Sequence record: NC_031103.1
Length of the DNA: 64,000 bases
Reading direction: 5' to 3' (one strand)
Origin: Escherichia phage vB_EcoM-UFV13
This document shows positions 9,822 through 55,077 of this stretch, piece by piece. The notes under the pieces are model-generated. The model was not told where the DNA came from. It did no database searches and saw only the letters and a list, made by a program, of their open reading frames with translations. Every line of letters begins with the position of its first letter. Within the stretch, counting starts at the first letter, position 1. Made by a program: the position numbers and the translations under genes.

Positions 9822-9852
9822 TTCATTATACCACGTTTATACGTGAAGCATT
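9822..9852 (-). promoter_or_regulatory. MotA-dependent middle promoter of uvsY
   Basis: Minus strand ATGCTTCA (MotA box) then 13 nt then TATAAT, about 40 nt upstream of uvsY. Confidence 0.7.
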
Positions 9853-10249
9853 ATACTCTATTACTGGAAGCCAGTTGCAGTTTTATCTGCTCAATATCAT
9901 CAGGATTATCGATGACCGAAAAGCGTATTTCTACTATCAGAGTATAATCATCATAAACCGGTATCACATTAACTGATAATTTATCAATACGTGGCTCATA
10001 GTTTCTTACCGCGCTTTCGATGTTACGCTCAACTGTGTCAGCAGTAAGAGGAGTCATATTTTCAAAAAGCTGGTCTGATAAATCACATCCAAATTCAGGG
10101 TCAAACGGTCTTGAACCTTTTCTTGTTGTAATAATTCCCAAAAGACTGTTTTTAATTGACCTTAATCCAAGAGATCTAGAAACGTCTTTGTCCCAGTCCA
10201 TTTTCATTTCTGGGTCAATGTCAGAATAAAGCTTATTAATATTTGCCAT
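9851..10249 (-). CDS. 25: baseplate wedge protein gp25
   Basis: 132 aa, T4 gp25 length; 1-nt TAATG overlap with gene 26; split Shine-Dalgarno with hairpin upstream. Confidence 0.93.
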   Translation of the reverse strand: MANINKLYSDIDPEMKMDWDKDVSRSLGLRSIKNSLLGIITTRKGSRPFDPEFGCDLSDQLFENMTPLTADTVERNIESAVRNYEPRIDKLSVNVIPVYDDYTLIVEIRFSVIDNPDDIEQIKLQLASSNRV

Positions 10250-10875
10250 TACAATAGCTCAAAGAATTCTTTGAGTCCTCTTATTACATGAGCGTGAGTT
10301 TTTCCACACTCTGGACACTTAATTGGAACAGCCAAATAAACAGTAGGCTTTAAAAGCATATCTTTTATAGCTACAATATCTGACTCTGTGATGATAGAAT
10401 ATAAATCTTCCAGTTCTTTTTCATTTAAGTCTTCAACTGGAATGCTTTCCCCGTTAGCATGAATCGTTTCTATACATGATACTATCATGTGGGCTATATT
10501 TTTATCATCAAAAATTTTAGGGTAATGGAACTTAATTTTAATGTCACCCAGTGTATACCAGAGGTCTTCTGGTGCATCTATTTGTGTATGTAATAGATTT
10601 ATATGGGTTGGTATTTCAGTTCCACAGGTGCACTTCCAGGAGTTTTCGTGATTAACTTCACCAAGAGAATGTGCCCATAAATGAATCAACAATAGTTCTG
10701 ATTCTTGGCGGTTTAAATCTTTTGCATTTGTGCAGTCTTTGATTAGCTTTTTAACAATTACTTCTACGGAACCATTATTTTTGGCAGTAATAAGTTCTAG
10801 ATATTCTTTAAGCGTGAATGCGCGACAATTGATTATTTTAGAACCAACTCTCACGTCAAATTTGTATTCATACAT
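10249..10875 (-). CDS. 26: baseplate hub protein gp26
   Basis: 208 aa; divergent from gene 51 with shared late-promoter region. Confidence 0.9.
10250..10280 (-). promoter_or_regulatory. split ribosome-binding site of gene 25 with intervening hairpin
   Basis: Minus strand GAGGA-CTCAAAG-AATT-CTTTGAG-CTATTGTA-ATG; Shine-Dalgarno lies 26 nt from the ATG unless the hairpin forms. Confidence 0.75.
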
Positions 10876-10896: not shown

Positions 10897-10908
10897 TATT
10901 TATAAATA
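10897..10908. promoter_or_regulatory. overlapping divergent late promoters for genes 26 (-) and 51 (+)
   Basis: TATTTATAAATA contains TATAAATA on both strands, each followed by AAGGAG and the respective ATG. Confidence 0.7.
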
Positions 10909-34134: not shown

Positions 34135-34166
34135 AATAAAATGGGCCTTGCGGCCCACTCCTTAAA
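34135..34166 (-). promoter_or_regulatory. structured ribosome-binding site of denA
   Basis: Minus strand UAAGGAG-U-GGGCC-GCAA-GGCCC-AUUUUAUU-AUG; Shine-Dalgarno overlaps the nrdB stop and is 23 nt from the AUG unless the GNRA hairpin forms. Confidence 0.6.
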
Positions 34167-35331
34167 AATATTTTTTAAAACTCATCATAACTTTATCATC
34201 AACATCATTATCAATCTGCGCAACAAGGTAAGATGACAGTTCTACTTCTTGCGGTGCAGATTGAACATTATCAGAATTAAGATATTCACGAATCCAAGGA
34301 TACGGATGTTTAACCGGAGCATCAGTAATTGGGCATGGAAGACCGCACTGTTTCATACGAGATACAGTTAAGTAATCAATAAAGCTCCACATGCTATTTG
34401 TATTTAATCCAGGAACATCGCCATCTTTAAATAAATGAACTGCCCAGTCTTTTTCTTGACGGTTAACTTCCATGAAAATATCAACTGCTTCTTGTTCACA
34501 TTCTTGGGCAATTTTAACCCATTCATCACCATCAGTGCCAAGTTGAAGTTGACGAATAATATATTGGGTGCCTTTAAGGTGAAGCTGCTCATCACGTGCA
34601 ATGAACTTCATAATCTTGGCATTACCTTCCATAATTTCCATGTTCTTATGGAAGTTAAAGGTACATGCGAAAGATACATAAAAACGAATAGCTTCCAATG
34701 CGTTGATTACGTGCAGGCAGAGGTAAAGAGATTTCATTAGTGCTCGTTTAGTACATTCAACAACTTTGCCTAACTCTTCTTTACGAAATCCTTCTGATAA
34801 AATTCCTTCATAATCTTCAACCGCATTCTGATATTCACGAGTCTTAACTAGAACATCATCGTAATAGCGACCAATGGACTCGGCACGTTTCATAATAGCT
34901 TTATCTAATACAATCTCGTCAAATACTTTTGACGGATCAGTATAAAGATTTCGCATAATATGAGTATATGAACGGCTGTGAATAGTTTCGCTAAAAGTCC
35001 ATGTAGCAACCCATGTATCAAGACTTGGGTCTGAAATTAACGACATAAGTACAGCAGACGGCGCACGACCCTGAATGCTATCCAAAAGTGATTGATACTT
35101 CAGGTTATTAGTAAAAATATCTTGCTGATATTGAGGAAGCTTGTTAAATTGTGCAGCATCCATCATCAAGTTTACTTCTTCAGGACGCCAGAAAAATGAT
35201 AATTGCTTTTCGGTTAAATCTTCAAAAACTTTATGACGTTGAATATCGTAACGCGCAATACCGAGACCTGAACCGAAGAACATAGGTTCTTTTAAAACAT
35301 CAACTGGATTTGTATTAAAAACTGTGCTCAT
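34162..35331 (-). CDS. nrdB: ribonucleotide reductase small subunit, uninterrupted
   Basis: 389 aa continuous ORF, class I RNR beta subunit. Confidence 0.95.
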   Translation of the reverse strand: MSTVFNTNPVDVLKEPMFFGSGLGIARYDIQRHKVFEDLTEKQLSFFWRPEEVNLMMDAAQFNKLPQYQQDIFTNNLKYQSLLDSIQGRAPSAVLMSLISDPSLDTWVATWTFSETIHSRSYTHIMRNLYTDPSKVFDEIVLDKAIMKRAESIGRYYDDVLVKTREYQNAVEDYEGILSEGFRKEELGKVVECTKRALMKSLYLCLHVINALEAIRFYVSFACTFNFHKNMEIMEGNAKIMKFIARDEQLHLKGTQYIIRQLQLGTDGDEWVKIAQECEQEAVDIFMEVNRQEKDWAVHLFKDGDVPGLNTNSMWSFIDYLTVSRMKQCGLPCPITDAPVKHPYPWIREYLNSDNVQSAPQEVELSSYLVAQIDNDVDDKVMMSFKKYF

Positions 35332-53300: not shown

Positions 53301-54255
53301 CTCTTCGGACGGCGATAATAAAGCGACTGAAGGCGATTGGAATGGAAAACGACCGTTTTCCATTGATATGACTGCTGGTACTGTTCGTCTTGGCGAAAAT
53401 ACTTCTTTTGATAAAGATATTACTATTAATGGAAACATTAATTCACGAGTTAAAGCTGCCGGACAATGGAGTGTTAGCTTTTCTGCTATTTCAGATGTGA
53501 CTCGCGACAATTCTGCATTCTTAGCGAATACGGGTGGCATTTCCAAGACAAGTCAAGCTTATTACCCGCTATTTTCTGGATACAGTTTTTTAACTGACGC
53601 GGGTTATCGACAATCGTTTGAATTTGGATGGTTAGGTGTTTCTGGTACTTGGCGCCAAGGCATTATTCGCATGCGTGGTGACAACGCATCGGGGCAACAG
53701 GCTCGTTGGACTTTTGATATGGATGGAACATTTTATGCTCCTATACTATCATGCGGATCTGCGAGAGCATTCGGTGTCAATACATCAAATGGTCTCGGTG
53801 GAAACAGTATAACATTTGGTGATAGCGATACCGGTATTAAGCAAAATGGTGATGGATTATTAGACATATATGCGAACAACGCACAAGTATTCCGTTTCCA
53901 AAACGGCGATTTGTACTCATACAAAAATATAAATGCTCCAAACGTTTATATTCGTTCTGATATTCGTTTAAAATCCAACTTCAAACCTATCGAAAATGCA
54001 CTTGATAAAGTTGAAAAACTTAACGGTGTCATTTACGATAAAGCTGAATACATCGGTGGAGAGGCAATTGAAACTGAAGCGGGTATTGTGGCTCAAACGT
54101 TGCAAGACGTTTTACCAGAAGCTGTCCGTGAAACAGAAGACAGTAAGGGTAATAAAATACTCACTGTTTCTTCTCAAGCCCAGATTGCTCTTCTAGTTGA
54201 AGCTGTGAAAACACTTTCTTCTCGTGTAAAAGAACTTGAATCTAAACTTATGTAA
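50395..54255 (+). CDS. 37: long tail fibre distal subunit gp37, T2-type with C-terminal chaperone-like domain
   Basis: 1286 aa; C-terminal about 110 aa (…NGVIYDKAEYIGGEAIETEAGIVAQTLQDVLPEAV…LESKLM) resembles a cleaved intramolecular chaperone domain. Confidence 0.9.
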   Translation: MATLKQIQFKRSKTAGARPAASVLAEGELAINLKDRTIFTKDDSGNIIDLGIAKGGQIDGNVTINGLLRLNGDYTQTGGMTVNGPIGSTEGVSALVFRSMRGSFYARATNDTSNAHLWFENTNGSERGVLYSKPQSENEGVITMRVRQGTAAGAQNSEFHFISTDGGIFQARKLTALTSISTPTISVNLINHDSKAFGQYDSQSLVQYVYPGTGETNGVNYLRKVRAKSGGTIYHEICTAQTGLADEMSWWTGNTPLFKLYGIRNDGRMIIRNSLAIGTVTEGYPSSDYGNTGVMGDRYLALGDNASGLKWVRTGVIDLMANGISAATIINNGINSTKKLMVGYSRDSGTTWDFPNNNQAMFTARTDIDGNNNGDGQTHIGYNSNSKMYHYFRGTGRMAVGMSQGLLVEPGILDINTGSNRVAIRADGTFDSTQRISMRTGLFLSGDDNTNALLFKAPSGVDGTKPISWAAGTRNGQNKNDISIKVWGNAFNSVPGIRETVFEVYDSQGYYFYSQRQRPEGSETVGPVVTQFSGQVNANGSISTAGNLKVDGLSTLNGNVTMKNGLFVQGGSSITGQVKIGGTADALRIWNAEYGAIFRRSESNLYIIPTPKGAGESGGISNLRPLIIELNTGTVKMSHDVHLGDSGSGTGLLQVSNSLKTIKMICPVTINERNAALTLDSPSSSSANYLQGSKAGTRSWYVGLGGAGNDLSLYSQSYGHGLVISDNFVSISKPLKVGNAQLGTDGNITNGSGNFANLNTTLNRKVNSGFITYGATAGWYKFATVTMPQSTSTVFFKIAGGSGFNSGLFTQCNIAEIVLRTSNERPADLNAVLYTRTSGLYSAAFRNIAVNNVSGNTYDIYVYAGTYCNQLACEWSCTENATVSVIGINSSTQSPVDALPDTAVNGQVANVLNNLVDRGKAKRYVAESEIAINNQTGIRITSNSDRSGSNSVLFRNDGGNFYILLTDKNSSDGDNKATEGDWNGKRPFSIDMTAGTVRLGENTSFDKDITINGNINSRVKAAGQWSVSFSAISDVTRDNSAFLANTGGISKTSQAYYPLFSGYSFLTDAGYRQSFEFGWLGVSGTWRQGIIRMRGDNASGQQARWTFDMDGTFYAPILSCGSARAFGVNTSNGLGGNSITFGDSDTGIKQNGDGLLDIYANNAQVFRFQNGDLYSYKNINAPNVYIRSDIRLKSNFKPIENALDKVEKLNGVIYDKAEYIGGEAIETEAGIVAQTLQDVLPEAVRETEDSKGNKILTVSSQAQIALLVEAVKTLSSRVKELESKLM

Positions 54256-54257
54256 AA

Positions 54258-54273
54258 GAGGGCTTCGGCCCTC
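54258..54273 (+). other. UUCG hairpin between genes 37 and 38, preceding the gene 38 Shine-Dalgarno
   Basis: GAGGGC-UUCG-GCCCUC then UAAGGAUUUUUA-AUG. Confidence 0.6.
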
Positions 54274-54285
54274 TAAGGATTTTTA

Positions 54286-55077
54286 ATGGCAATTGTAGGT
54301 GTTCCTGGCTGGATTGGCGAATCTGCCGTGAATGAAACTGGACAACGTTGGATGGATGCTGCGATGAAAGCTGTTCGTGTTTCAGTTCCCGGTTGGATGA
54401 GTTCAATGGCTGGGCAATCTAAAGAAGTATATTATAGTGTTGGTGCTAGTAATTCTTATAATAAAGACACACTAATAAATTGGATAAAAGCTCAAGGAAG
54501 TACTCCTGTTGTTATTACTATTACAGGAAATATTGTTTCTCAATCTACTGGTGTTCCATGCTTAGATTTTCCTAGCTCATTAACTAATGCGTATGTTACC
54601 TTAAATATTAATAGCGGGGTTCATGTATTAGGTCGGGGAGGAAATGGCGGAAGTAACTCTGCTGGTGGAGCAGGAGGAACTGCAATAAATAACGGAATTG
54701 GAACTCGTTTAAGAATAAACAATAATGGTATTATTGGTGGCGGTGGCGGTGGCGGCGCAGGTGCTAGATACAATCCTTTCCCTCAAATGGATATGAAATT
54801 TGGCGGCGGAGGAGGTCGTCCATTTGGTGCTGCCGGTGCAGCCGGTGGCGGCGCAGCGGCTGCATCTGCCGGTACAATTTCTGCTCCTGGTAAAGGCACT
54901 GTTTCTGGGGTTCACCATGGAGGAGATGGTGGAGATTTGGGAGCTGCTGGCAAATCTTCATATATTCAAGGTGGTACTGGAGGAACTGTTCACTCGGGTG
55001 GTGCTGCGGGTAAAGCTGTTACTGGTAATGCTCCAACTTGGACTAAAGTTGGTACAATATATGGTGCAAGAGTATAA
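54286..55077 (+). CDS. 38: tail fibre tip adhesin gp38, T2-type with glycine-rich motifs
   Basis: 263 aa with several poly-Gly motifs (GGGGGGAGA, GGGGGRPFGAAGAAGGGAAAA); differs from the 183-aa T4 gp38. Confidence 0.88.
   Translation: MAIVGVPGWIGESAVNETGQRWMDAAMKAVRVSVPGWMSSMAGQSKEVYYSVGASNSYNKDTLINWIKAQGSTPVVITITGNIVSQSTGVPCLDFPSSLTNAYVTLNINSGVHVLGRGGNGGSNSAGGAGGTAINNGIGTRLRINNNGIIGGGGGGGAGARYNPFPQMDMKFGGGGGRPFGAAGAAGGGAAAASAGTISAPGKGTVSGVHHGGDGGDLGAAGKSSYIQGGTGGTVHSGGAAGKAVTGNAPTWTKVGTIYGARV

Follow-up and report, generated by a model that had tools for sequence, protein, structure and literature searches.

In Escherichia phage vB_EcoM-UFV13 (NC_031103.1), a T6-like Tequatrovirus, the junction between genes 26 and 25 very probably carries a split ribosome-binding site that is orthologous to that of T4 gene 25 and works as has been published for T4. 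By analogy with that system, we place the probability of this reading at roughly 0.9. The gene 25 split site is already known, and this phage keeps the published arrangement. We observed the sequence of the site, its fold, its orthology, its conservation in relatives and the absence of a proximal Shine-Dalgarno (SD) sequence, each of which is described below. All coordinates refer to the window, the whole 64,000-nt stretch of vB_EcoM-UFV13 DNA that was analysed, and the gene 26-25 site lies on its minus strand.

Layout and fold of the gene 26-25 junction

The minus-strand mRNA at the junction reads ...CAU GUA AUA AGA GGA CUC AAA GAA UUC UUU GAG CUA UUG UAAUG GCA.... The distal SD of gene 25, GAGG (10277-10280, minus strand), has the same sequence in T4T and spans the gene 26 codons AGA-GGA (Arg199-Gly200); together with the A at 10276 it forms GAGGA (10276-10280, minus strand). 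This is followed by an 18-nt hairpin (10258-10275, minus strand), a perfect palindrome that RNAfold and RNAalifold both fold into a 7-bp stem and a 4-nt loop, with a 5′ arm CUCAAAG (10275-10269), a loop AAUU (10268-10265) and a 3′ arm CUUUGAG (10264-10258). The hairpin occupies codons 201-206 of gene 26 (L K E F F E), and both the SD and the hairpin fall within the final ten codons of that gene. An 8-nt single-stranded tail, CUAUUGUA (10250-10257, minus strand), holds the last gene 26 codons and leads from the hairpin to the gene 25 AUG (10249-10247), which the gene 26 stop codon UAA (10251-10249) overlaps by one base (UAAUG, 10251-10247). The distance from GAGG to the AUG is 27 nt, or 26 nt when counted from the last A of GAGGA. 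The preliminary description had placed GAGGA 26 nt upstream of the gene 25 ATG, with the 18-nt hairpin CUCAAAG-AAUU-CUUUGAG between the two and the whole element inside the 3′ end of gene 26. The distance is exact by base count, the sequence and RNAfold agree on the hairpin, and the open reading frame read-out puts the hairpin in the final codons of gene 26; the one correction is that the element sits on the minus strand of the window.

Both flanking genes are open reading frames with annotated counterparts in T4T. Gene 25 (9851-10249, minus strand) encodes the 132-aa baseplate wedge protein gp25, and gene 26 (10249-10875, minus strand) encodes a 208-aa baseplate hub assembly protein, gp26, that is identical to T4T gp26 at 207 of 208 residues. 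A 1.1-kb region around the junction is ∼97% identical to T4T DNA; 498 phage records match it at 90-99% identity, and almost all of these come from T4-like coliphages (Tequatrovirus). Residues 1-132 of gp25 align to residues 1-132 of T4 gp25 (PDB 5iv5_T, E = 1.8e-83), with two substitutions and 130 of 132 residues identical (PDB 5iv5). Because the two proteins match from the first residue to the last, the alignment confirms, at the level of protein sequence, that gene 25 truly starts with the AUG at 10249, and it does so independently of any argument from the ribosome-binding site. The start call in the preliminary description was therefore right, and this alignment confirms it independently.

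A box with the T4-type late promoter consensus TATAAATA lies upstream of gene 26 (10897-10904, minus strand) and is recognised by its consensus only. We looked for a TATAAATA late promoter inside gene 26 and found none, which makes a late transcript of gene 25 on its own improbable, and the box at 10904-10897 is presumed to be the source of a bicistronic 26-25 late mRNA. Two TATAAATA boxes overlap by 4 bp on opposite strands here (10897-10908), the minus-strand box at 10904-10897 for gene 26 and the plus-strand box at 10901-10908 for gene 51. Gene 26, unlike gene 25, has an ordinary ribosome-binding site, in which AAGGAG stands 6 nt from the AUG at 10875.

RNAfold returns the hairpin in every context tried, from 65 to 250 nt, with stem pair probabilities of 0.86-1.0 that are at least 0.96 except at the outermost pair, and the isolated hairpin has a predicted energy of about -7.5 kcal/mol. 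The duplex of the distal GAGG with the anti-SD (-5.8 kcal/mol) is the best in the upstream region. A search for a proximal SD of gene 25 found no usable one, since the best anti-SD duplex reaches only -1.9 kcal/mol and its bases are tied up in the paired 3′ arm. In the partition-function fold, the GG of GAGG pairs for the most part with the CU immediately 3′ of the stem, with a bulged A between, and has a probability of ∼0.2 of being unpaired. In this model, the ribosome would have to displace the GG-CU pairing next to the stem.

Hairpins of this kind are common in the window. It contains 21 perfect hairpins with a 7-bp stem and a 4-nt loop, compared to 7.9 ± 2.8 in dinucleotide shuffles, and the z-score of the 71-nt fold is only -1.7. 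A scan of the window for the composite motif (an SD-like tetramer, a hairpin, 4-10 nt and ATG) gave nine overlapping matches at four distinct sites, against a mean of 1.24 in shuffles. Within-window hairpin statistics were dropped as evidence, given the 21 such hairpins where ∼8 are expected and the modest z-score. A 7-bp hairpin being so common by chance, the weight of the argument rests on the comparison of relatives and on the literature, and the meaning of the site comes from its position, its conservation and the published T4 experiments. Searches of Rfam gave no matches for the whole window at the gathering score, and a permissive search around the site gave chance-level matches only (E of at least 0.4), with no model fitting the element.

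On these features, initiation at gene 25 may be pictured as follows. The late 26-25 mRNA would offer a sole good SD for gene 25, the GAGG, which at 27 nt is too distant from the AUG on linear RNA. Folding of the hairpin would remove 18 nt (16 by the published count) from the path and leave a gap of ∼9-11 nt between GAGG and AUG (1 + 8 unpaired nucleotides plus the closing pair). The 30S subunit would then bind GAGG and AUG together, with the hairpin looped out, and reinitiation at UAAUG by ribosomes terminating gene 26 may add to this. From the published T4 work, we infer that gene 25 translation in vB_EcoM-UFV13 depends on the distal SD and the hairpin. For annotation, the site explains why gene 25 is missing an SD at the usual distance and supports the AUG at 10249. 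It also provides a textbook case of mRNA structure that aids, rather than blocks, translation initiation.

The T6-type version and its relatives

In an alignment with T4T, all 14 bases of the stem are unchanged, as are GAGG, the AUG and the distance between them, while five of the 27 spacer bases in the GAGG-AUG interval differ from T4, none of them in the stem and all of them silent in gp26. The differences turn GAGGC in T4 into GAGGA, the loop AGUU into AAUU and the tail UUACUAUA into CUAUUGUA. Counted over the silent sites of this interval, 0 of 5 changed in the stem and 5 of 6 outside it (Fisher one-sided p = 0.013). The preliminary description had stated that the region matches the known T4 gene 25 initiation region. 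Comparison with the T4 gene 25 leader upholds this, as the architecture is the same, although the five silent spacer differences have to be added to the description. The 61-nt junction is base-for-base the same as that of phage T6, and 267 phage records match it at 99% identity or more. By sequence, the window carries the T6-type version, the commonest among sequenced Tequatrovirus genomes.

The two versions also differ in their predicted folds. The ∼0.2 probability that the GG is unpaired compares with 0.26-0.65 in T4, and the core hairpin is predicted to be fuller here (0.96-0.99) than in T4 (0.65-0.88). Two silent changes flank the stem relative to T4, an A for C after GAGG and a C for U after the stem. 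These flanking changes could allow the GG-CU pairing across the bulged A, and the T6-type site might then be tuned differently from that of T4, a suggestion from folding models that we regard as doubtful. If it were true, gp25 output in the common T6-type phages would be set by the same device, but to a level other than that of T4.

For a wider comparison, we assembled 24 relative junctions (19 of them distinct) from IMG/VR loci and GenBank phages, with gp25 60-100% identical to that of the window. The 24 junctions align gap-free, and the GG of the distal SD is invariant in all of them. RNAalifold run on the relatives independently recovered exactly the same hairpin. Across the 19 distinct junctions, 95.5% of the stem cells form standard pairs, compared to 59-65% when the partners are slid by one column. 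Compensatory changes occur at two stem pairs, which lie in coding sequence. The main switch is at columns 22 and 35, from C-G to U-A, where GAG becomes AAG, a Glu-to-Lys change in gp26, and the partner codon changes silently from CUC to CUU. Protein coding alone does not readily account for an amino acid replacement matched by a silent change in its pairing partner. The covariation supports the structure in the aligned sequences, short of proof because the independent events are few. A role of the 18-bp palindrome at the DNA level (it contains GAATTC) was considered and is unsupported, the conservation tracking RNA pairing with G-U pairs included.

Anti-SD duplex and hairpin energies, computed for each distinct sequence, separate the relatives by how they place the SD. 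A strong hairpin (-5 to -7.5 kcal/mol) is found in the T6-type window, T4, Mosigvirus and several IMG/VR lineages, and in this group the distal SD reaches -5 to -7.5 kcal/mol and the proximal SD only -0.6 to -3.2 kcal/mol; in the window itself, the hairpin stands at -7.5, the distal SD at -5.8 and the proximal site at -1.9 kcal/mol. Most of the aligned relatives that have a strong hairpin and a strong upstream SD have no SD adjoining the AUG. In the phages of Karamvirus, Marfavirus and Lazarusvirus, the hairpin has decayed, the distal SD is weak and a proximal SD of -5.5 to -9.3 kcal/mol is present. Distal and proximal SDs occur together in a Dhakavirus phage and at locus L022. No split arrangement is seen in the Slopekvirus, RB43, Krischvirus, Aeromonas and Vibrio relatives, where the proximal SD is of the ordinary kind. 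This fits the literature, which describes the split site for close T-even phages and its absence from distant relatives.

Several of these junctions are intermediate states of the gene 26-25 junction. Phage IME540 (Dhakavirus, locus L025) has an intact hairpin and distal SD together with a strong proximal AAGGUGAU. The Karamvirus phage (L035/L008) has a mismatched stem and a proximal AGGU, in the Marfavirus phage (L027) the stem contains a C-A mismatch and the distal SD is degenerate, and the Lazarusvirus phage (L026) and L022 have a proximal GAGGU arising from the region of the 3′ arm. The comparison illustrates how such a site evolves, with a hairpin and distal SD in some lineages and a decayed hairpin and proximal SD in others. 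In the IME540 record (MT150133.1, L025 398-787), the gp25 homologue bears the label "recombination repair and ssDNA binding protein (UvsY)", apparently a wrong annotation transferred from uvsY next to it.

Alternatives to a split ribosome-binding site

The overlap of the two genes raises the question of translational coupling as the main route to gp25, in which ribosomes terminating gene 26 would restart at UAAUG, melting the hairpin as they translate gene 26, and hairpin and GAGG would be incidental. The UAAUG overlap of the window is present in 22 of the 24 aligned relatives and the remaining two overlap as AUGA, the gene 26 stop and gene 25 start are still adjacent or overlapping in relatives that have no split site, and a single late promoter appears to serve both genes. 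Because the stop/start arrangement is kept even where the split site is absent, coupling may contribute. As the main route, however, it is improbable, since a review reports that initiation in T4 drops when the hairpin is destabilised by mutation and that the split site is backed by reporter and DMS work (PMC3014915). Coupling alone also leaves unexplained the conservation of silent sites that is limited to the stem, the compensatory pairs, and the trade-off between distal and proximal SD.

Those same observations bear on whether the palindrome could have arisen by chance, or from the codons needed for the gp26 C-terminus (Leu-Lys-Glu-Phe-Phe-Glu), and have no function at the RNA level. The hairpin does lie wholly within coding sequence, in a gene whose product is almost unchanged from T4 (207/208), and ∼8 perfect hairpins of this size are expected per 64 kb, with a local z-score that is modest (-1.7). 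Such an origin is nevertheless highly unlikely, since the silent sites of the stem are frozen where their neighbours have changed (p = 0.013), the stem survives the Glu-to-Lys replacement through a silent change on the opposite arm, and the phages with a decayed stem have gained a proximal SD; the published T4 experiments also speak against it (PMC3014915). There is next to no chance that gene 25 uses as its SD the weak GAG found 8 nt from the AUG in the 3′ arm, with the hairpin acting as a mild inhibitor rather than an enhancer. This GAG stands at a canonical distance, and Krischvirus, Lazarusvirus and L022 have a full GAGG(U) there that looks like a working SD, but in the window its duplex is worth -1.9 kcal/mol against -5.8 kcal/mol for the distal GAGG, and it is paired with a probability of ∼0.9 or more. 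Duplex energy and pairing together speak against it as the true SD, and the T4 structure is described as enhancing (PMC3014915).

Other junctions in the window and comparison with known systems

The same geometry is seen at the nrdB-denA junction (34164-34132, minus strand), upstream of denA, which encodes endonuclease II (34134-33724, minus strand). Here, the nrdB stop codon UAA (34164-34162) is followed by GGAG (34161-34158), a hairpin UGGGCC-GCAA-GGCCCA (34157-34142) with UUUUAUU after it, and the denA AUG (34134-34132), so that the distance from SD to AUG is 23 nt if the RNA is linear and 7 nt once the hairpin has formed. To judge by its sequence, the hairpin with its U-run looks like an intrinsic terminator as well, and it is labelled "terminator" in some phage records. 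The region is 95-100% conserved in 501 records. T4 nrdB contains a group I intron that encodes I-TevIII. In the window, nrdB is a single uninterrupted 389-aa open reading frame (34162-35331, minus strand) and, being unbroken, appears to be without the T4-type intron.

T4 gene 38 is the other T4 gene with a classical site of this kind, and we compared the corresponding junction in the window. A tblastn search of the window for a T4-type gp38 found none, and the open reading frame at this place is of the glycine-rich T2/T6 type (54286-55077, plus strand). The gene 37-38 junction (54253-54288) has a UUCG hairpin, AGAGGGC-UUCG-GCCCUCU (54257-54274, plus strand), and the gene 38 SD, AAGGA (54275-54279, plus strand), lies 3′ of it and 6 nt from the AUG, so the site is not split in the window. 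The order in T4T is UAAGGAG, hairpin, UCUAAAU-AUG. A T4-type gene 38 split site in the window was ruled out on these grounds, gene 38 here being of the unrelated T2/T6 type.

The T4 sites of gene 38 and gene 25 have been termed non-contiguous or split (PMC7297116). For gene 38, the hairpin is reported to reduce the SD-AUG spacing from 22 to 5 nt (Gold 1988, as cited in PMC7297116 and PMC3014915). The common principle with the gene 25 site is a stable hairpin that restores the spacing between SD and AUG, while the gene 38 site differs in belonging to another gene, in its GC-rich UUCG hairpin and in being intergenic. Coupling at overlapping stop and start codons (UAAUG, AUGA), as in phage and bacterial operons, shares with the present site the one-base overlap of genes 26 and 25. 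It needs neither an SD nor a hairpin, whereas a conserved distal SD and hairpin exist here, and both are reported as required in T4 (PMC3014915).

The closest known system is the T4 gene 25 site itself. There, the hairpin shortens the distance between SD and AUG from 27 to 11 nt, and structure-destabilising mutations lower initiation (review PMC3014915). As the review summarises the primary work, the site was also treated by Nivinskas et al. (1999, J Mol Biol 288:291), and Malys and Nivinskas (2009, Mol Microbiol 73:1115) confirmed it with lacZ fusions and DMS probing and found the split site in the close T-even phages among 38 T4-related phages (PMC3014915). By the same account, this 38-phage study had already proposed an evolutionary history along lines similar to those described above (PMC3014915). 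The site in vB_EcoM-UFV13 shares with the T4 site its genes, its position at the 3′ end of gene 26, the GAGG, the 27-nt spacing and the sequence of the 7-bp stem, as well as the 4-nt length of the loop, the 8-nt length of the tail and the UAAUG overlap. It differs in five silent spacer bases, which make it the T6-type version.
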